A DNA stretch of 63,373 nucleotides, the filler included, from Reclinomonas americana ATCC 50394 (Eukaryota): NCBI GenBank assembly GCA_048213135.1. It is 20 parts of 18 records of this genome, joined end to end, with 100 filler letters (N's around TTAATTAATTAA, not from the genome) between each part and the next. Parts side by side here need not be neighbours in the genome. Positions count along the whole stretch, not along the records: positions 1 to 3,236 come from PS016086.1; positions 3,337 to 7,101 come from PS016087.1; positions 7,202 to 9,085 come from AFZH01016681.1; positions 9,186 to 14,510 come from PS016088.1; positions 14,611 to 18,303 come from AFZH01016684.1; positions 18,404 to 21,193 come from PS016089.1; positions 21,294 to 24,760 come from AFZH01016687.1; positions 24,861 to 27,546 come from PS016090.1; 12 more parts are not named here. The stretch is one strand, 5' to 3'. The translations under genes were made by a program, and so were the position numbers. The notes under the pieces are model-generated. The model had not been told where the DNA came from. It ran no database searches and saw only the letters and a list, made by a program, of their open reading frames with translations. Below, piece after piece: positions 309 to 62,740 of the stretch (its first letter is position 1; every line of letters begins with the position of its first letter).

Positions 309-3300
309 TCCTCGAGAAAGCCAACGAGATCATCGACGCCGCGGCCAGCATCCTGCCCACCAAGAAACCCGGTGGCGGCAGTGGCGGCGCCTCCTCCAGT
401 GGCGGTGTCGGTGGCAGCGGTGCGGGCGATGCCGGCGACCACTCGTCGGCCTCTGCACTGCTGGCCATGCACGGCAGTGGTGACGGCGATGGAGCGGTGC
501 CGGAGAGCGAGATGCGACGGGCGTTGCTGCTGCAGGCGGAGCGTGAGTCGAAGCACGCGCGCATGACGGCGGGTATGACGGCGGATGGTCGAGAGGCCAC
601 CAATGAGGTGAGAATGGGGCGAAGGGAGTGGGGTGCTTGCGAAGGTGGGGTTTACAAGAGTCATGCAGCGCATGCAACGTCTCTCGCGTGAGCTGTTTGC
701 GCTGGTCAGCCAGGAGAACTTCTCGTACAAGGCGCTGGCGGACAAGCGCACGTTGATCCTCGCGCGTGTGCATGCTGTTGCGTTGAGACGTGATTTTGTC
801 GCACCGTTCGCGTTGGTGCTGAATGATGGTGGTGGTGATGCAGGCGCTGAAGAAGGCACACGACAAGTTGGAGGTGTGTTTGTGCACAATATGTGATGGT
901 GGCAGTGCCTGTGTCTATTTTCTGGCTGTGTTTGTGCTCGTGGTTGTTTGCGAGATTACCCGTTGCATGCACTTGCAATATGTAACTGTGCGTCTGTTGA
1001 ATGTCAGCAGTTGCATTCACTCCTATCGGCGTTGCTTGTGCTTCAGAGTGTGTGTATCGTGAGACTCTGTGTCTCTGAGAATCTGTCTCTGCTATCTTTC
1101 GTTTCTTGTCTCCTCACTTCTCCATCCCTTCATTACTCCAGAATGGCAAGCCCCTCAAGCGCCCCGCGGAAAAGAAGAGCGCCCCAGTGATGCAGGTCTG
1201 TTTATCATCTTCCCTGTCTTTTCTGTCCATCCAATGCTCACCTGCCTCCTCCCCCTTCCTCAGCTCGGCATTCTCACCTTCAGTCAGCTTCTGCTGGCCA
1301 TGGTCGAGGACTCGAGTCGCAGCAACCCACACCTGTGCACTCTGGCGCTCGGTTTCCTCCGCCAGCAACTGGATCTGTTGGAGCCTCTCTCACTGGCTCC
1401 GTCGCCGGATCTGCCTGGTACGTCCATGTTCACAAACGCACTCATGTGTCTGTCAAATTGTGGCATGCAGTCCTCTCGTCCTCTCTTTCTGCTTGCTGTG
1501 TCTCTTTCTCTCTCACGCATACGCACTCTCTCTCTCTCTCTCTCTTTCTCTGTCTCTCAGTCTCTGTTATTTCTCACTGTCTCTCTCGTTCTCTCTTGCT
1601 CGCTGTGGGATTCGTCTTTCTGTAATAATTCTCTTTCTCTCTCTTCTGTTTCATTTCTCTTTCTTGCTTTCATTCTGTATGTCTCTGCCAGTCTCGGTGT
1701 CATTCATTCTTTCAACTCACCTGAGTGCAATGTCAAGAGAAGCGAAACGACTGCTCGCTGGGTTTTTTTCATAGCGTTCTGATTCCATAGCTCAGTCCAG
1801 CATTTTACCTGTGCTCTTCCACTCTTAGTTTGCCAGCATCTTCCCGTCCTCCTTTTCTTGCATTCCGTAGTTCTCCATTCCTTCACTTTCTTCTTTTCAT
1901 TCCTTCCTCTTTTTGCTCTTCCCCCTTCTCTTTCCCCTTGCTCTTCCCCCTTCTCGTCCCCTTTTCTTCCTTCCTTCCTTCCTCCTTCCTCCCTTTCTCC
2001 CTTTTCTCCCTTTCTCCCTTCCTCCCTCCCTTCCCTTCCTCCCCTTTTCCCTTCTCCCCTCCCCTTTCCTACCCCTTTCCTCCCCCACCGCACAGCCCCG
2101 GACGTCTCGCTCAGTGCGCTCGACAGCGCCGAGTCGTTCCTCACCGGACTCGCCAGCCGCGCCGTGCAGCGTGACGCGCAGGCACAGGATGTGGAGTTTC
2201 GTAATCATTCAGCCCTCCCTCCCTCCCTCCCTCACCCTCCTCTCACCCCGATGTGCAGGTTCGCACGACAGAGCCTGGAGCTCCTCGTCGGTCTCTCCGT
2301 GTCGCGAGCGGTGCGTGTGCAATATATGATCTCCTTCTTGTGTCGTGTCCGTGTTGTTGAATTGGCTTTGGTGCAGTCGCTGCGCTACTTTGTGGACACT
2401 GTGCACTCGCTGGTCGGCATTGGTGGCACTGCGGCGGGCGGAAACCTGCGTCTCGATGTCGGTCGCGCACTCAAGAAGCTCGCCGAGGTCAAGGACTCGC
2501 AGAGTCTTGTGGCGCCCACCGTGGCCAACTTTGGCGGTCTGCGTCTTATCTTTGTGGTCCTCTTTACCCGCAGCCTCTCACACGCCGCACACAGGCACTT
2601 TCACGCTGCGCGTGATCAAGAGCGCAAAGCGCTGCTCCATCACGGTGGACGGCCGCGGCTTCATGTATCTGCACGGTTCATTTGGCATTGCGCGCGTCGG
2701 CACCGGCCTGTGCGGCACGACACCCGCACGTGTCTATCACCTGGTGCCCGATTTCCGTCCGAAGGAGCGCAGTCACCTGTTCTTTGCCTACAACTGCCTC
2801 TTTTATCGGTCACCCAAGACGGCGCCGGCGACGCTGTTGGTGCTGGATGCCGACACGTTCGAGGTGCTGGGCACAGTGATGCAGAACGGCAGCGGCACGG
2901 TGCCCTCGGTCGACAACTCGGAGTTCATGTTTACGCCGGAAATTGCGACGGCGACCAGCAAGAAGAAGAAGGAGAAGAAGGCCGAGGATGGTGAAGTCAT
3001 TCCCGACGAGGATGGTGGTGATGCAGCTGGTTCTTCGGTGCGTGGCGCGAGGGGGATAGGGGAGCAGGGTAATGAGAAAGAGTGTGATACAGACGCGGAG
3101 GAATTGGATCGCGTGTGAGATTACTTCCTTCTTGTGGTCCACTCTCCTATCACCTGCTCGTGTTTCTCCTCTTCTTAGTCTCCGTCTCATGCCGCTCATC
3201 CCGTGCACTTTCATCTCAGACCCTCCCTTTATCCCGNNNNNNNNNNNNNNNNNNNNNNNNNNNNNNNNNNNNNNNNNNNNTTAATTAATTAANNNNNNNN

Positions 3301-53069: not shown

Positions 53070-56000
53070 CTACATGTATTCCTCCTCCTCCTCCTCCTCC
53101 TCCTCCTCCTCCTCCTCTTTCTTCACCACCTCCATTTTCACCGGCTTCTCGTCACTCAGCACTGCATTCATGCTCGTTAGAGATGACGGTGGCACGACAT
53201 CCAACAACAGCAGGTGCTCCCACATTGTTGTATGCAGCACTCACCGGCAGACTCAATCTCCGCCTTTGGAAGACGACCATCTCGAAGCAGAGTGGCCAGT
53301 AGGCCAGGGCAATTGTGGAGCAGATGCATGGCCTGAGTGACAAATGGCAGAAGAGCATTTGGAGTGCCTCCCTTCCGCATGTGCTCGGCATATTCCTACA
53401 ATCCGAGAAAAGCAAAGTAAGTCAGCATCGGCAAGTCACAACGGAACACACAACCAGGGTCCACATGCCTCGGAGTAGCCGCGATCGTCAATCGCAATAA
53501 GTGGTCTCTCGACAGCATCCACCAGCGCAGCTTCTCGAAGATCGCTCTTCTAATGATTCCACATGCACACGATGGCAGGCAGGTCAGTTGCCATGCACAC
53601 GCAAGCGACTGTGACACAGAAATAACAAACTGGCACTCACCTCGATGAAGTTACTCACGCTCTCAAGCACACCCTCAATTGACTTGGGCGTCGTGCTGCG
53701 TGCATCTCGGGCACTGCTGGCAAGACTCTTGCCAAATGCAGCCATGACTACGGATGATGGACAGCCCGGTCCCTTCGATGGTATTCCGCAGTCATCACAG
53801 GCCAGGTGGAACAGAACTCGCTGATGATGGACGACTGTGGATTCCATCACCACGGGTGCCATGAGACCGAATGCCTTCACCAGAACCCTCTTCTTGTTAT
53901 CGCCCTACTCTCAGGTGTAACGGATGGGTGGGAGTGAGTGAGGAGTTTATGACAGCAATGTCGGCGATACAAAGAACACGCAACAAGCAATCTCGCCAGC
54001 ATCAATTGCTCGTTGATGCTCAACTTCGCAGGATCAATCTTGCGGCGCTGTGAAACACAGGACGCGCAGTGTTGAGACGTATATCATGCATCTATCATGG
54101 AAAGCAGCGTCGGGCGTACCTTCTTTCCCTTCGCGTCATCGTCTAAATTGTCGCTGTCGTCATCATTTTCTTCCTGCTCACCCTCCCTCTCCTCCTCTTT
54201 CTCCATCATCTCCATATCCCTCAGGGCTGTTCACATGTCTCAGCACAAGTAAGCAACAAAGCCACGAGCACAAGCAGCCAAACCTCTTTTACTGCACCAT
54301 TCGGCGGCACGAGCAATTTCCGCCTGCGAAAGGCAGCCGTCCCGAAGCAGAGTGGCCAGCAGGTCTGGACAGCCGTGGAGAGCCTGCATGGCCTGTCTGA
54401 CGTGTGGCAGAAGAGCACTACGAGTGCCTCCCTTCTGCAACTTTGCTGATTCCTGCCATCCAGTGTGAGCCAGCTTTCCATGACGCGCATTAGCAAACAC
54501 ACAATTTCACACGCGCCTCAGAGTAGCCACGGTCATCAAGCACAATCAGTGGCTTCTCGACGGCATCCACCAGCTCAGCTCCCCGAAGACCACTCTTCTG
54601 ATGGTGACATCCACGTCGAAGTCGAGTCAGGTACCGCGCACATAACAATCGGAAGGATACTGAAACAACACACCGACACACTCACCTCTATGAAATTGCT
54701 GACACTCTTGAGCACACCCTCCACCGACTTGGGCGTCTTGCTGCGTGCTGTATTGGCACTTGTGGCAAGAGCCTTGACAAATGCAGACTCGACTGCGGCT
54801 GATGGACACCCTGGTCCCTTCGACGGTATTCCGCAATCGTCACAGGCAAGTTGGAGGAGAACTCGCTGATGATGGAGGACTGTGGATGACATCACCACGG
54901 GTGCCATCAAACCGAATGCCTTCACCAGCATCCTCTTCTTGTTGCAACCCTGCTCCGAGGCGCAGTAAGCAGATGTGAGCGTCAGCACTGTCGGTGACAT
55001 GCAGAGAAAACAGCAACACGCAACAAGCAGTTTCGCCAGTATCAGTTGCTCGTTGATGTTCAGCTTCACAGGACCACTCTTGCGGCGCTGTGAAGCGCAA
55101 TCCACACAAAGTTAGGACACGCACCTGCCTTGCAACTAACGGAAACGAGCGACGGGCGTACCTTGCCATCGTCCTCGTCCTTCTGCTCTTCCTCCATCTT
55201 CTCCTCTTTCTTCACCATCTCCATCTCCCTCAGTGCTGTTCAATCGTTGTTGAGCACATGCACACACTGTACAGCAATGCAAGTCACGCAGCCAAACCTC
55301 GTTCACCGCACCACTGGACAGCACGTGTGATCTCTGTCTTCGAAAAACAGCCGTCTCGAAGCAGAGTGGACAGCAGGCCAGGGCAGTTGTGGAGAGCTTG
55401 CATTACCTGCGTGACGAATGGCTGAATAGGTGTCTGCTTGTTGTGCTGCATCGTCGGCAACTTTGATGATTCCTGACAACCAAATTCCAGAACACGGAGC
55501 ATGAGAATATGGCAGCCAATATGAACAACGCACACTGAGTGCGGGGCAGCCAACCTCCGAATAGCCACGCTCATCCACCACAACCAGGGGTCTCTCAATG
55601 GCATCCGTCAGAGCAGCGCCACGCAGTTCACTCTTCTGCATAATGCTACATACATTAGCGATGATATTGATTCAGTCGCGCGAAATGAATGCAGCTCACC
55701 TCGATAAAGTCGCTCATGCTCTGGAGCACTCCCTCAACTGACTTGGGCGTGTTGGCGCGTGCCTTGTTGACGGCATGGCCAAGGCTCTTGCCGAATGAAC
55801 TCACAACTGCCGTCGACAGGCAGCCTGCTTTCGATGAAGGGATGCCACATTCCTTGCTTGCAAAGTCAAAAAGAATGCGCTGATGATGGCAGATTGTGGA
55901 TCCCATCACAATCGGTGCCATGATGCCAAACGCCATCACCAGTACCTTCCTCTTATTGCAGCACTGCTCTCCCATGAATCACATCGGTGGTGCAATGTGC

Positions 56001-59000
56001 ACTCAATCAGCCAGACGACTACCGAAGGATGTCATGAATGTAATCAAACGCAACAAGCAGCCTCGCCAACATCAGTTGCTCATCCTTGTTCATTGTCGCA
56101 GGGCCACCCCCTCGTCGCTGTGGATACACACCATGAGATGATGCCATTGTGTGCTCCTGACCACAGTCATACCTTGCTCCTTTCAACTTCGCCGGAGTCG
56201 TCCTTCCCATCCTCCTCCCCGTCGACCCTCGAATCATCATCATCCTCCTCCTCCTCCTCCTCCTCCTCCTCTTTCCTCTTTTCTTTCTTCAGCACCTTGG
56301 CCTCCAGCAGGGCTGCATCTCTTTCGTCAGTTCTGACAAGTTGCACAGGAGAACGCACCCAATGCCATCCAACCTCTCTCACTGCACCACTCGACTGCCC
56401 GTGCAACCTCCTCCTCGGAGAGACAGCCGTCTCGAATCAGCGACGCTTGCAAGCCAGGACACTCTCGCAGCGCCTGCAAGGCGTGGGCTATGAGTGGCAG
56501 GAGAAGGTCGTTGCCATTCGGCTTCTTCTCCATCATCTTCCATGACTCCTGAAGCACGATCGACATCGTGAACGACGCGGGTGAGTGGACACAAACCGGT
56601 AAATGTAGAAAGAGCACACAAAGGAAAGTTTGCACACCTCCGAATGGCCCCGTTCGTCAACCACAATCAGTGGTCTCTCAATGGCATCTGCCAGAGCAGC
56701 GCCGCGCAGTTCGCTCGTCTGCAAGAGTTACATGTATTAATGGTGGTTCACTTTGCAGTCACGTGTGAAATGGATAGCACAGACTGCTCACCTCGATGAA
56801 GTCGCTCATGCTCTGGAGCACTCCCTCAACTGATTTGGGCGTGCATGTACGTGCGTGACTGACGGCATGGCCAAGAGTCTTGCCGAATGAATCCATGGCT
56901 GTGGACGACGGACTGCCAGCTCCCGATGAAGGAATACCACACTCGTTGCAGGCGAGTTCAACGAGAACGCGCTGATGATGCAAGACTGTGTTTCGTTTCA
57001 GAACTGGTGCCATGATACCGAACGCCATCACCAGAAGCATCTTCTTGTTGCACCGCTGTTTTTCGCACACACACACACACACGCACCAGGTATTATGACA
57101 GGCAAGCACACGACAGAGTGCAATTAATCTGCATTGCTGGGATATTGCAGCACATACACACGCAACAAGCAGTCTGTCCAACACGATTCGCTCGTCCATG
57201 CTCATATCCACATCATACAAACGGCGACTGCACTTGACGCGCTGCAAATACGCACCCCATGAGACATCAACAATTGACACAACTGCCTCCCAGGCCATAC
57301 ACAGGCGGCGACAACGTCGTACCTTGCTCGTCTTTGATTCTTCGCCATCATCACTTCCTGCATCCTCCTGTGAACGCAACGCATCAGCGCGTGGCCGAGC
57401 CCACGAAGACACACCCAGTCTTCGTCATTCATGAACTGTTGATGCTCACCTTGGTGTCAACTTCTTCATGCTTGATGTCATCGTCGTCTTTCTTCACCAC
57501 CATTTTCACATCGCCAGATTCTGCGTAATGCTGGTCAACACCAGCGCATGCAACAACAACAGCCGCACGAAGTTGCAGACCATTCGAGTGGCACCACGTG
57601 ACGGCGCGTGCAATCTCGGCCTCAGAGAGGTGGTTGTCTCGAAGCAGAGAAGCCAGAAGACAATCACACTCGCGCAGCGCATCCATTGCCTGCTTGACAA
57701 ACGACAGGAGATGGTCTCTCTGGGCCTTGTTCGCTGGAGACAGTCTCTCCCATGACTCCTGCCAATGAAGCCGAGTGAGCAAAGACCAGTCGACCCGATC
57801 ACAACCGACACATAAGATCGAGTAACATAAGCGCACCTCTGAATACCCGCGCTCATCTACCACAATCAGCGGTCTCTCAACAGCATCCGCCAGAGCCGCA
57901 CCACTGAGCTGGCTCACCTGCATTGTGCAATCATCTGCACGTTGGTTCATCTGTCACTGTCGTTCACTGACACACATGCTTGCTCACCTCTATGTACTTG
58001 CTCACGCTCTGGAGCACACCCTTCACGGACCTGGGCGTTCTGTTGCGTGAATCACTTGCAGCTTGACTAAGCTTCTTGCCGAATGCGCACTTGACTGCAG
58101 ACGACGAGCAACTCAGCTCCGACGATGGAACTCTGCAGTCGTCGCAGGCAACGTCGAAGATAGCACTCTGATGGTGGACGACAGCGGACTTCTGAACAAC
58201 GGGTGCCATCAACCCGAATGCCTTCACCAGAATCCTCTTCCGATTGCATCGCTGTGAGTGATACAAGAAGAATAGTGAGTGCGACGAGGAGAAGAAGGAG
58301 ACTGAAGGGGTTACAACGATGTCAGAGAGAGCATGCACACGCAACAAGCAGCTTGTTCAGCAACAGCTTCTCGTCAGCGCTCAACTCCACTGGTTTCGCA
58401 GCTCGAGTCTTGCCACGCTGTGAATTCACAACACGCATGATTGACACAAGAGAACCCAAATGCACATCGATGAAGAAACACAACAATGTCAGCGACAGAG
58501 AATTCACACCTTCTTCTTCTTTGGCGGCGGTGCAAGCTCGTCATCGCTGGATGCATCAACCTGCAGAGAATGAAAAAATATTAGGTGTCAACTGCGATGC
58601 ACAAGAGAGAAGCAAAGTGAGACGCGCGCCTCATCGGAGTTCACCTCAAGAGAACGCTTGCGGACCGATATCTCAACTGAGTCACGTGCAGGCAAGTTCT
58701 CACTGTGATCCACGAGAGGCGAGTCGACTCGCTGCCTCCTCGCGTGTTGCTGTGCAATCATGCCAAGGGCCAGCGAGAGAGTGAGAGACATGCTAATCTT
58801 GGGATGACACATAATCACTATACCTCGACGATGCCTTCCATCGCAGTGTGTTCCATGTGCTCCCGGTGAGCAGCTGTGTGCATGCCCCACCCAGGTGAGA
58901 CACTACGTGACGCGAGAACGCCAATGACTGCAGGAGAGAGAGAGAGAGACGCACCCTGCTCGAAGTGACGTGGACATTCACACTGAGCAGCGGCAATGGC

Positions 59001-59938
59001 TGCCGTGCTCTCGTCGGTGTGCTTCTTCTTCTTGTCCTTCAAGAGGCCAGCTGGTTCTGCAACAGGGAATCGAAACATCGACAATCCATGATGAGGAAGA
59101 AGAAGAAGAAGAAGAAAAGAGAGAGAGAGAGAGAGAGAGAGGAGGAGGAGGAGGAGGAGGAGGAGGAGGAGAGAGAGAGGAGGAGGAGGAGGAGAGAGAC
59201 GTACGTACGTACGTACGTACGTACGTACGTACGTACCGTACGTACGTACGTACGTAACGTAACGGTAACGGTAACGGTAACGGNNNNNNNNNNNNNNNNN
59301 NNNNNNNNNNNNNNNNNNNNNNNNNNNTTAATTAATTAANNNNNNNNNNNNNNNNNNNNNNNNNNNNNNNNNNNNNNNNNNNNGGAGGAGGAGGAGTGAG
59401 AGAAACGATGCACTCTCCATTGTCATCACCCAGCATCACATTGAGGGGAAAGTAGATGCGGAGCTCAACACACATACACACAGAGGGTGGGAGGGAAGGA
59501 GGACGCACAGCTGTGGCCACATGAAAGGCCCAGAGAGAACAATGACAACATAAGTGCAACAAGCACAATGAGAGAGATAAACACACACACACACACACCT
59601 TTCTTGGCAGTGACACTGGTGGTGGTGACAGACGTGGAAGAAGAAGAGGACGAAGAAGAGGAGAGAGGCACTCGTCGCCTCGCCATCGCAGGCACACCAC
59701 GATGAGCAGATGACACCGATGCGCTCTTCTTCTTGTCATCATCATCATCGTTGCTGATGGAGAGAGCGGAGGAATGCATCGTCATCATCGTCGGCGTCGT
59801 CACATGCTGCTTGCTGTCGATGAGCATCATGTCTGCTTTCTCATCGTCGCATGGAGAAGAGGCAGACATTGACAGCGAAGGAGTAGTTGTTGTTGTTGAG
59901 TGAGGGCGCGGTGGAGGAGGAGGATGTCGAGCGGCCAT
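53070..59938 (-). CDS. Unrecognised protein with five tandem ~215-aa repeats, copy 2 (paralogue)
   Basis: Start MAARHPPP at 59938. Same exon structure (core exons ending near 57988, 56792, 55699, 54687, 53641). TAG at 53070-53072. Confidence 0.7.
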
Positions 59939-60926
59939 TTGTGTGTGTCTTGGTTGTTGTTCTGCACACACACGCGCGCTGCGTGATGCAAGAAACGAAG
60001 AGAGTGAGGGATAGGAGACAAGAGATTCGTTGATCCGAACAGCAAGATGAAAAGGTGACAAGTCGTGATGTGAAGGGAGGAGGAGGAGAAGGTGAGGAGG
60101 GGCAGAGGAAAGAAGGAGAGAGAGGAAGGTGTCAGAGAACTGGACAACCTTGGGTGCATCGTCAACTGCGATTGTTCTCCATGACCAGCAACGCATTTGT
60201 TTCTTTGTTTTTGATCATGGAGAGAACATGGATCAGGGGAAGGCGGTGCTGAGATGATGATGGACAACAACTCCACAGAGTACAACAGAGCACCAGAGCA
60301 GTTGCACCATGGCATGGACACCGAGGAAGAGCCACGGACAGACACGACCCTGATCATTCATCGAGACTGCATTCCAAGCGCACCAGCAGAGGTCGTGACG
60401 ACTGCAGGCGCTGACACATAACCCGGGAGCTGAAGCTGCGTTCCTGGAGAACATTTCACGTGGCTCAACAATACTGTCGGAAGAAAGCCCCCATCTTCAT
60501 TTTTTGCGCTCAACCCACCCACTCACTCCTCCAGCTCATCCAGCAACTCCTCCACNNNNNNNNNNNNNNNNNNNNNNNNNNNNNNNNNNNNNNNNNNNNT
60601 TAATTAATTAANNNNNNNNNNNNNNNNNNNNNNNNNNNNNNNNNNNNNNNNNNNNAAGGGAGAAGGGAGAGGGGGGGAAGGGGAAAGGGAAAGGGGGAAG
60701 AGAAAGGGGGAAGGGAAAGGGGGGAAGGGAAAGGGAAGGAAGGAAAAGGGGAGGAGGGAAAAGGGGAAGTGAGAGGCGGACATCTACAGACACACTGTGA
60801 GCAAACATCGAATTCTCAGTGAGAGAGAGAGAGAGAGAAAGTGAGAGAGAGAGAGAGAGTAGACATTCGCAAACAGAAACCAACACAGACGTGGAGGATT
60901 GAGAGAGTTGTAGACAGTGACCAACC

Positions 60927-61979
60927 CTTCTGGCGATTGAAAATGAACGCCTTTGGCTCCGTATTCTGCATCAGGTTGGTGCGCGCCCCATCTGTGGGCG
61001 GCAAAATTGTGTTGTCATTGAACTTGTTGATTTGCGCATCTGTGCATCAAAAAGTGTTTGTAAGCAAGAGCGCCTTCCTCGACGCACAATGGCGGTACTG
61101 CTCCACCGACCAATGACAGTATCGTCGTCGGTGTCAATGTCGAAGATCATGATCACGGCGCCGGTTTTCAGGTTGTCGTTGTGGATCTGCAAGAAGGATT
61201 GTGAGGAGAGGAGCAAAAACCTGGGTCCAACATCGACGGGAACGCAACGGCATGCTGACGAGCGCGCACACGAGCGAGCACGGTCTTGATGAAGGATGCA
61301 GCGGCGAGTGGTCGCTGACCACCATCTGCGCAATGAGACACGCAGGTGAGGATCAATCATGTATACAGGATGCACGACACTCTTCTTCAGCTCACCAGTC
61401 TCGGAGCCAAACATAAAGTCAGAGAGGGCGCGGTTGTACTGCGTGCCAGCAATGTTGTACGGGACGCGAGTGGCCAGGCTACGAGTGAATTCCACCATGG
61501 AGATGGTGTTCAAGCGGAACCTACACCGCGATGATTGTAAGTCATCGTGTCGGCAGCGCACAGCAGAAGAACGTCGTCACGCAACTTGAGGTGCACGATC
61601 TCGTCGGGGTACGCCGTGAGGAAGCGCATGACGTCCTTCTTCACGTCGTTCCAGTTCTGACCACCAAAGCCACCGAGACCGACCGAAAAGTGCTCAAACA
61701 GCCACTCCTGATTCTTGGGCTTCAGGCGCACATCAAACCAGCGCCAGCCAGCACACATTTCTGCGCAGTCGTGGGTGTGAGCGGGTGAGTTGAGAGAGGA
61801 AAGAGAGCAAGGTGACGCAACGCTGCACAATCTTGAGCGCGTGCGTGCGCGCTGAGCTGTCCTCGGCTGTGGTCTTGCCGGCCTTGGGCTTGATTGGAGG
61901 GTACAGGCCGGCGTCGTGGCTGCCGGGGATGATGACCTCGTTCAGGCGCAGTTCCTTGAAGGAGTGGCCGAGCTTGCCC
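60927..61979 (-). CDS. PI-PLC X-domain (PLCXD-like) phosphodiesterase, partial
   Basis: LRLNEVIIPGSHDAG, GWRWFDVR, FLTAYPDEIVHL, VIMIFD. Confidence 0.8.
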
Positions 61980-62235
61980 TGCGGAGAGGGGAGGGAGATG
62001 CGGGGGGAAGAAGGAGAGGGGAGGGGGAGGGGGAGGGGGAGGGGGAAGGGGAAGGGGAAGGGGAAGGAGAGGAGAGGAGAGGAGAGGTGAGAGGAGAGGA
62101 GAGGAGAGGAGAGGAGAGGAGAGGAGAGGAGAGGANNNNNNNNNNNNNNNNNNNNNNNNNNNNNNNNNNNNNNNNNNNNTTAATTAATTAANNNNNNNNN
62201 NNNNNNNNNNNNNNNNNNNNNNNNNNNNNNNNNNN

Positions 62236-62740
62236 ATCTCGCACCATGTTTCTCCGGCACCAGATGGCATAGTTGTGTGCCGTCTCCACCGCCAGCCGAC
62301 CCAGCATGCTCACCGAGGAGGTGTCGCCCTCGCACAGCGACCGCCATGCACGCAGCAGCAACTCGATCTCGCCATTCATGTCAATCAGCGGCTGGATCAC
62401 GCGGACCATGCGGGGATCTGTGGGGCAAGCTTGGAGGGTCAGCAGTCGATTGAGTGGTGAGGACTGGAGGGGAGCGAAGACGTAACATCCAACAAGCACG
62501 TTGCGAATGCACAGGTTGTATCTCAGCGCCCGGCAGATGATGGCCGCGCCCTTGTGTGAGAATCTGTTGTCGGAGAGCTGTGCGTGGAGAGGTCAGAGGT
62601 GGAGAGAAGGGGAGTGAGAGAGAAAGGGGGACACGTACCACGAGCGTACGAATGACAGAGTTGTGATCGGAGAGGGCGATAGCCAGATCCGCACACCCGG
62701 CGTCCACGATATTGCACGCTGCATGCAAGGTGAGATTTTG
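62236..62740 (-). CDS. Leucine-rich repeat (RI-like) protein, partial
   Basis: LTLHAACNIVDAGCADLAIALSDHNSVIRTL and LSDNRFSHKGAAIICRALRYNLCIRNV. Confidence 0.7.

Follow-up and report, generated by a model that had tools for sequence, protein, structure and literature searches.

Two forms of 5' splice site, divided by the last exon base, in short introns of Reclinomonas americana

Introduction

Can one genome use, side by side, two forms of the 5' splice site (donor) that differ by a single inserted base, and if so, what reads the second form? The question is raised by a stretch of 63,373 bases joined from parts of the assembly GCA_048213135.1 of Reclinomonas americana ATCC 50394 and hereafter called the window. 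The window includes 5,160 N, has a G+C content of 55.3% without them, and consists of eukaryotic nuclear DNA rich in short introns. An initial inspection (the sequence-only reading) had listed numerous donors such as GTTGCGT, described them as ordinary donors with an extra T used after exons that do not end in G, and proposed that a U1 pairing register shifted by one nucleotide, rare in humans, is mainstream here.

Our analysis showed that the major (U2-type, GT-AG) introns have two donor forms, G/GTNNGT after G and mostly H/GTTGCG(T) after A, C or T (the slash marks the exon-intron boundary, and H stands for A, C or T). The second form, hereafter called shifted as opposed to normal, accounts for about a quarter of the introns in the window (24 of the 87 kept). 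These data suggest the routine use here of a mode of splice-site reading encountered only very rarely in humans.

Placement and classification of donors

Donors were placed using two procedures blind to the motif, namely (a) a protein-to-genome alignment in which only GT and AG were demanded and (b) an ab initio parser combining codon log-odds with a self-trained acceptor and branch-site model, in which any GT could serve as donor. In the unscored parse, donors contributed no score, introns were restricted to at most 250 nt and strands to those judged coding. In the refined parse, the donor score drew solely on intron positions +3 to +8, exon bases remaining blind. The latter parse predicted 148 introns, 87 of which were kept after dropping 35 with gene scores below 25, 7 on strands judged antisense, and 19 that were longer than 300 nt or held N. 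Donors with G at +5 were classified as normal, those with T at +3 and G at +6 as shifted, and the rest as other; the extra base is T by class definition. All counts refer to this one 63-kb window and to our own parser, with protein guides for some sites.

A giant gene on the plus strand encodes Laminin_G_3, SPRY and HECT domains and ends near position 18,300 (Pfam on six-frame open reading frames). Divergence of its product upstream of SPRY precludes guided alignment there; donors 9628 to 11584 were placed by the parsers alone. Exon 22708-23181 gave only six weak matches to representative proteins, useless for junction checks. The metagenome loci (L001-L018) are mostly intronless and resemble complementary DNAs (cDNAs), so that orthologue protein motifs, not intron signals, were confirmed there. 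L018, the sole clearly genomic locus among them, has two donors, both of the normal G/GT type.

Two donor forms and the last exon base

The 87 kept introns of the refined parse comprise 55 normal, 24 shifted and 8 other donors. The last exon base (-1) is G before 44 of the 55 normal donors and before none of the 24 shifted ones (Fisher p=3.7e-12), which are preceded by A in 11 cases, C in 7 and T in 6. Conversely, none of the 48 exons ending in G is followed by a shifted donor, while the 39 non-G exon ends are followed by 24 shifted, 11 normal and 4 other donors. The tie to non-G exon ends proposed from inspection thus holds, and it is also present in the unscored parse, whose 69 introns include 31 normal donors, 25 of them with -1G, and 14 shifted donors, none with -1G (p=2.3e-7).

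A count that needs no gene model gives the same picture. GTTGCG occurs 61 times on both strands, preceded by T 32 times, C 15 times, A 13 times and G once; G precedes 86 of 537 GTTG occurrences not followed by CG, versus 1 of 61 GTTGCG (Fisher p=8.5e-4). The sole G-preceded GTTGCG, at 17276 on the minus strand, is antisense to a HECT exon. Among the dropped introns, two rows combine a shifted donor with -1G, and neither reads GTTGCG: 15567 (GTTGTGTT) is a rival of 15563, the donor chosen by homology, and 9009 (GTTGAGTC) lies on the weakly coding strand of contig 7202-9085. The donor at 61380 (GTGTCGTG) is the only kept one that resembles insertion of a base other than T.

All 23 single-copy coordinates listed from inspection read GTT[G/T/A][C/A]G at the given base, and 22 are used as donors by the refined parse, 20 in kept rows and two (777 and 35311) in long or N-spanning rows; the remaining one, 18441, lies at a contig end. 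The three examples of a normal form after a non-G exon (13710, 17592 and 17698) are likewise present. The donors are as follows.

16661 to 16667, plus strand: shifted donor C/GTTGCGT in the HECT domain; motif-blind guided alignment with 2 of 2 guides (P0004, P0005), unscored and refined parses
16893 to 16899, plus strand: shifted donor A/GTTGCGG at the ELELM-I-CG junction; guided alignment 2 of 2, unscored and refined parses
17444 to 17450, plus strand: shifted donor T/GTTGCGT after HTC, start of the microexon chain; guided alignment 2 of 2 and 7 of 8 further runs, refined parse
17518 to 17524, plus strand: shifted donor after the 1-nt exon T (17517); refined parse, chain matches orthologues
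17773 to 17779, plus strand: shifted donor after the 1-nt exon T (17772); refined parse, chain matches orthologues
14874 to 14880, plus strand: shifted donor A/GTTGCGT; unscored and refined parses, 2 of 5 protein guides (P0017, L007)
13061 to 13067, plus strand: shifted donor C/GTTGCGT; unscored and refined parses, 1 of 5 protein guides (P0017)
2196 to 2202, plus strand: shifted donor A/GTTTCGT; unscored and refined parses
5653 to 5659, plus strand: shifted donor A/GTTGCGT; unscored and refined parses
9628 to 9634, plus strand: shifted donor A/GTTGCGG; refined parse only
9995 to 10001, plus strand: shifted donor T/GTTGCGT; unscored and refined parses
11311 to 11317, plus strand: shifted donor A/GTTGCGA; unscored and refined parses
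11584 to 11590, plus strand: shifted donor A/GTTGCGT; unscored and refined parses
21869 to 21875, plus strand: shifted donor A/GTTGCGG; unscored and refined parses, predicted intron of 216 nt
22233 to 22239, plus strand: shifted donor T/GTTGCGT; unscored and refined parses
28345 to 28351, plus strand: shifted donor A/GTTGCGT; refined parse only, poor acceptor score (-3.7)
30303 to 30309, plus strand: shifted donor C/GTTGAGT; unscored and refined parses
30927 to 30933, plus strand: shifted donor C/GTTGCGT; refined parse only
777 to 783, plus strand: listed donor T/GTTGCGT, weakly supported; unscored parses take 768, refined parse takes 777 with a 365-nt intron, row dropped for length
61815 to 61821, minus strand: shifted donor C/GTTGCGT; unscored and refined parses
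62480 to 62486, minus strand: shifted donor T/GTTACGT; refined parse
35305 to 35311, minus strand: shifted donor T/GTTGCGT; exon end in the parse, intron spans an assembly gap, row dropped
18435 to 18441, minus strand: listed motif C/GTTGCGT, candidate donor; motif present, 37 nt from the contig end
61579 to 61585, minus strand: additional shifted donor A/GTTGCGT, not in the sequence-only reading; refined parse, weak acceptor score (0.4)
61242 to 61248, minus strand: additional shifted donor C/GTTGCGT, phase 0, not in the sequence-only reading; refined parse
13710 to 13715, plus strand: normal-form donor A/GTGCGT after a non-G exon end, one of 11; guided alignment, unscored and refined parses
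46332 to 58345, minus strand: ten paralogous repeat-unit donors CTT/GTT[G/A]CGT; conservation and exon frame, region poorly modelled by the parser

Are these true junctions? The donors at 16661, 16893 and 17444 were picked by the motif-blind guided alignment, which supports them as real GT-AG donors. The inspection had invoked the ELMICG motif at 16893 as support for cleavage at the GT, and our own reading of the junction bears this out, as codon A/TC yields I where orthologues have V, while cleavage one base later would yield S. Cleavage at HG/TT with a shifted acceptor was therefore rejected; it gives this S instead of I/V and also breaks the FFS chain described below (own reading).

That the donors are misplaced by frame-guessing or by faulty assembly, with the true junctions lying elsewhere, seems to us very improbable. 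The junctions are admittedly predicted from sequence, the assembly is broken up by 19 linker gaps and 4 sized gaps, and 24 of the 69 introns of the unscored parse fall in neither class, mostly owing to misplaced donors. With microexons left free, moreover, homology alone permits other parses near 17444-18023. Nevertheless, reading by eye, protein-guided alignment and the exon-blind ab initio parse agree with one another, the raw k-mer count is independent of gene models, and the residues at the junctions match those of orthologues.

Anatomy of the shifted introns

The shifted heptamers are GTTGCGT (15), GTTGCGG (3), GTTGCGA (1) and five singletons, so that GTTGCG makes up 19 of 24. By position, G is found at +4 in 21 of the 24 donors, C at +5 in 22 and T at +7 in 18. 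The equivalent G and C occur in 36 and 27 of the 55 normal donors, which are thus less uniform; their hexamers vary, with GTGCGT in 18 of 55 and 18 other forms. As claimed in the sequence-only reading, GTTGCGT matches the ordinary GTGCGT with one T added. In our analysis, the paralogous pair GTTGCGT/GTTACGT parallels GTGCGT/GTACGT. C is never found at +7 of the 24 shifted donors, while many GTTGCG sites unused by the refined parse read GTTGCGC (own reading). We also observed an excess of G at +7 of normal donors, where it is the most frequent base (30/55), with no such excess at the equivalent +8 of shifted donors (7/24). Throughout the window, k-mer counts are 5 for GTAAGT and 100 for GTGCGT.

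In other respects, the introns of the two classes are alike. Their median lengths are 66 nt (shifted) and 70 nt (normal), and the last 45 nt contain a CT[N]A[CT] motif in 13 of 14 shifted introns and in 24 of 32 normal ones. Both classes commonly have the branch motif CTCAC, CTGAC or CTGAT at 12-34 nt from the AG and a YAG end (Y, C or T). Their removal restores the reading frame, and orthologue residues are matched across 16661, 16893 and 17444, as expected for U2-type GT-AG introns. U12-type introns were considered and rejected, as there is no RTATCCTT donor and the branch motifs are those of the normal class rather than TCCTTRAC.

Phase 0 is scarce among shifted donors (2/24 versus 22/55 normal donors, p=0.007), as would fit a role at exon ends that fall on a constrained first or second codon position. 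A weaker site that has to be optimal at its other positions would be expected to show the near-uniformity of the shifted motif.

A further possibility is that the shifted form needs no special recognition and is a by-product of mutation or of intron origin, for instance through slippage at T or an intron family that brought a GTTGCGT end with it. The short and fairly uniform length of the shifted introns and the extreme intron density near 17444-18023 are in its favour. However, intron cores lack similarity, with mean local alignment scores of 8.3 between shifted introns, 8.2 between normal ones and 8.1 across classes. An introner-like or transposon-derived family was rejected on the same grounds, shifted cores being no more alike than normal or cross-class ones. 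One-base target duplication also fails, as the first exon base after the AG varies. Finally, the heptamer is kept while the rest of the intron drifts, and mutation alone would not exclude -1G. We thus regard a by-product as improbable.

Paralogous repeat units

Conservation of the heptamer is most apparent in ten repeat units of the minus strand, all of which, as initially reported, carry the shifted motif. Their donors are at 46338, 47367, 48401, 49482, 50657, 53984, 55024, 56054, 57166 and 58345. Nine of the units read CTT/GTTGCGT, and the one at 49482 reads CTT/GTTACGT, the shifted counterpart of the frequent normal form GTACGT. Alignment of nine units shows no variation in the ten bases CTTGTTGCGT, whereas the intron diverges after about +9. 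The regions 45171-51436 and 52819-59124 form a segmental duplication (85.7% identity over 6362 nt); the ten units therefore represent five types in two copies each, hence fewer independent cases.

Each duplicate copy also contains internal repeats of approximately 1 kb, 72-78% alike, that encode low-complexity exons rich in K and E. In addition, ATGC/GTTGCGTTC is found at 49695 and 57380 (minus strand), at matching places of both copies; a further exon of the repeat gene may use these sites as shifted donors.

A chain of microexons at the HECT C-terminus

Between 17444 and 18063 on the plus strand, seven predicted introns split 13 coding bases, leaving four 1-nt exons (17517, 17591, 17697 and 17772) and two 4-nt CTCG exons. 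The refined parse finds the chain unaided, as donor 17444, exon T, donor 17518, exon C, donor 17592, exon T, donor 17698, exon T, donor 17773, exon CTCG, donor 17869, exon CTCG and donor 17957. The predicted spliced product, HTC-FFSLD-LP, corresponds to HTCFF[ST][ILV][DE][LI]P in orthologue cDNAs, with the same spacing.

The shifted register had been suggested to help 1-nt exons work. This proposal fared poorly, as shifted donors (17518 and 17773) follow only two of the four 1-nt exons and normal ones (17592 and 17698) the other two, which indicates that 1-nt exons do not require the shifted form. Single 1-nt exons have been reported from Arabidopsis and Fusarium, according to the portions available of PMC4674806 and PMC12940212. 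We found no report of a run of four 1-nt exons in the literature.

The closest HECT orthologues are environmental proteins, at 72% identity, and a Reticulomyxa filosa protein, at 66%. In several database orthologues (P0007, P0008 and P0012) the sequence turns into unrelated residues and stops shortly after conserved HECT motifs, for example right after AHTC in the Reticulomyxa protein. Such endings may reflect gene models that run into unspliced introns near the intron sites of this window.

Possible modes of recognition

How might the shifted form be read? We favour, with somewhat less than even confidence, a shifted U1-type register, in which one seven-base site is read in two frames. Early recognition, by the U1 small nuclear ribonucleoprotein (snRNP) and then by U6, would read a single site, G-N-U-G-C-G-U, whose first G would be supplied by the last exon base in the normal form; in the shifted form, the intron G+1 would fill that slot and U+3 would replace U+2, with cleavage staying in front of the sole GU. 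A shifted donor would then be independent of exon sequence, which would matter where the protein code fixes the last exon base.

A site of this kind would account for several features. GU fits it only as G/GU or /GUU, which would explain both the extra T and the identity of the remainder with the normal consensus. It would also explain why the rest of the shifted form is near-optimal and why this form is used where the exon cannot supply G. U would be needed at +3 because the shifted register pairs it with the U1 base that normally faces U+2. Counted by hand, the same shifted site forms five base pairs with U1 in the shifted frame versus two in the canonical one, but the optimum calculated with ViennaRNA is only -0.9 to -1.4 kcal/mol.

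Support comes from the absence of -1G, which also bears on a rival reading. U1, and U6 as well, might pair in the normal frame with one U at +2/+3 looped out. The shifted form does have one extra base between the GU and the GCGU block, that base is a U, which leaves the position of the bulge ambiguous, and U6 would have to bulge a base in any case. A register of this type has been validated in humans, as reported in the accessible part of PMC4856993. However, the bulge only costs energy relative to H/GUGCGU, leaving the extra T at non-G ends unexplained. Moreover, this frame would gain a G-C pair from -1G, which would be expected no less often than in the normal form (44/55), yet it is found in 0 of 24. 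A bulged U is less likely because it would welcome -1G, and we hold it to be quite doubtful.

Several observations nevertheless weigh against the shifted U1-type register. Hand counts give five pairs each for H/GUUGCGU and H/GUGCGU, and the energies calculated with ViennaRNA for a standard U1 5' end, which may not be that of the host, are -0.9 to -1.4 kcal/mol for H/GUUGCGU, -2.5 for H/GUGCGU and -9.1 for G/GUGCGU. As there is no energy gain with a standard U1, simple affinity for U1 does not explain the preference. The proposal that a shifted register is a mainstream class is therefore upheld for frequency (24/87), but not for the pairing, which finds no energetic advantage. Neither does affinity alone set the rule, since G/GUUGCGU would bind U1 well (-6.9 kcal/mol) and yet is absent. 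The shifted register also places the -1 base opposite U10, which should favour A, whereas A11, C7 and T6 are observed and the repeat units all have T. The repeat-unit donors are in phase 0 after the Leu codon CTT, with the synonymous CTG untaken, indicating that coding constraint is not the whole story. Pairing with U6 would still need a bulge. Lastly, only 1/5 and 2/5 of the protein guides choose 13061 and 14874, respectively, owing to poor conservation around these sites. The -1 rule may involve a protein, a modified base or a variant small nuclear RNA (snRNA).

Alternatively, a dedicated or altered component would match GUUGCGU, be it an additional U1 paralogue (for instance with a base change opposite U+2) or a modified U1-C or U6, with two particles serving the two donor forms. 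We consider this unlikely, albeit worth weighing, as a standard U1 offers no energetic reason for the preference and the shifted motif is unusually rigid (GTTGCG in 19/24). A hypothetical U1 with A at position 8, opposite U+2, lifts the shifted sites to -2.9 to -3.9 kcal/mol, but this gain is small, and under such a model -1G would be neutral, not absent. Comparative data point both ways, as far as the available text of 10.1101/2022.06.08.495308 goes: U1 5' ends have coevolved with donors in Entamoeba and Mastigamoeba, but U1 is standard in Thecamonas and Mamiellales, which also prefer +4C. We would likewise give a low probability to the broader proposal that exon-independent recognition has evolved, with a second U1 paralogue or an altered U1-C/U6 interface reading GUUGCGU within the intron. 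The exonic G would then be unneeded, and extreme packing of introns, including runs of 1-nt exons, would be permitted.

Genes and other features of the window

Apart from the giant gene, Pfam searches of six-frame open reading frames identified PAP2-like, TPR and Arm-repeat genes on the plus strand, nucleoside-transporter-like and Rab-like genes on the minus strand, and an RNase H2 subunit C gene. No snRNA gene was matched by Rfam in the window, at the gathering score or at E up to 1. Eight weak Rfam matches were obtained, seven to microRNA families around 59195-59262 and one to a small nucleolar RNA family at 23873-23939.

Each of the 19 linker gaps consists of N44, TTAATTAATTAA and N44, the middle part being a six-frame stop linker; the 4 sized N gaps come in addition. 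The order and orientation of contigs inside the scaffold may be unreliable. The coding potential of contig 7202-9085 is strong on the minus strand, where the parser gives a score of 162 and 2 introns, and weak on the plus strand, with a score of 46. The contig may belong to the giant plus-strand gene in inverted orientation or represent another gene, and a homology search on its orientation gave no signal. Tracts of (CT)n/(GA)n abound, the two strands together containing CTCTCTC 407 times.

Significance

We found no mention of the shifted motif as a donor in the literature, where a description confined to sequence logos or supplements would have escaped notice. According to the part of PMC11347168 available, 'non-canonical' introns make up a large proportion in several protists. 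Splice-site models and gene finders expect the GU and the remaining donor bases to stand in one fixed frame. If, in a genome, one donor in four lies a base out of this frame under a simple rule (last exon base other than G), annotation of such genomes would mis-score many real introns. Shifted or bulged registers, rare oddities in humans, would become a normal and evolvable solution, and the system would serve as a natural experiment to tell whether U1, U6 or a protein determines where cleavage occurs.

Comparison with known systems

In ordinary donors, the exonic -1G and intron positions +4 to +6 compensate each other, as established by work on position dependencies. As with the shifted form, a missing -1G is offset by bases of the intron; however, the known compensation strengthens +4 to +6 in frame, whereas here the frame itself moves by one base.

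A shifted (+1) register of U1 base pairing was reportedly described at atypical human 5' splice sites by Roca and Krainer in 2009. As here, the consensus lies one base into the intron, G+1 occupies the slot of -1G, and cleavage takes place at the GU. The human register, for which the sequence-only reading cited the motif GTTAAGT, concerns a handful of sites, in contrast with the 24 of 87 introns, the strict never-after-G rule and the near-fixed GTTGCG core observed here. Roca et al. are said to have described the bulge +2/+3 register in 2012; it shares with the shifted form an extra U between the GU and the equivalent of +5G. The human shifted register is cited in PMC4856993 and PMC9311317, and the former, in its accessible part, puts the validated non-canonical registers together at 1.5% of 201,541 human sites, with 68 sites predicted for bulge +2/+3 (Tan et al. 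2016, PMC4856993). No link of the bulged class to a non-G exon end appears in that part, whereas -1G is absent here.

Among other eukaryotes, Mamiellales green algae have rigid GTGCG(T/C) donors (Irimia and Roy 2008, PMC2483917) and Thecamonas has +4C donors (10.1101/2022.06.08.495308). In both, the GTGCGT-type normal consensus is as in the window and U1 is standard where examined, but the portions available of these sources report no second, shifted class. Entamoeba and Mastigamoeba, in which the U1 5' end has coevolved with atypical donors (10.1101/2022.06.08.495308), provide a precedent for a lineage's U1 changing to match its donors; according to the same portions, each of their genomes has one transformed consensus, whereas two frames coexist here. 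Finally, U12-type introns resemble the shifted class in their rigid donor, their scarcity in phase 0 and their minority status. The shifted class differs from them in lacking the RTATCCTT donor, in having an ordinary CTNAY branch site at 12-34 nt, and in a frequency that is far too high for U12-type introns.

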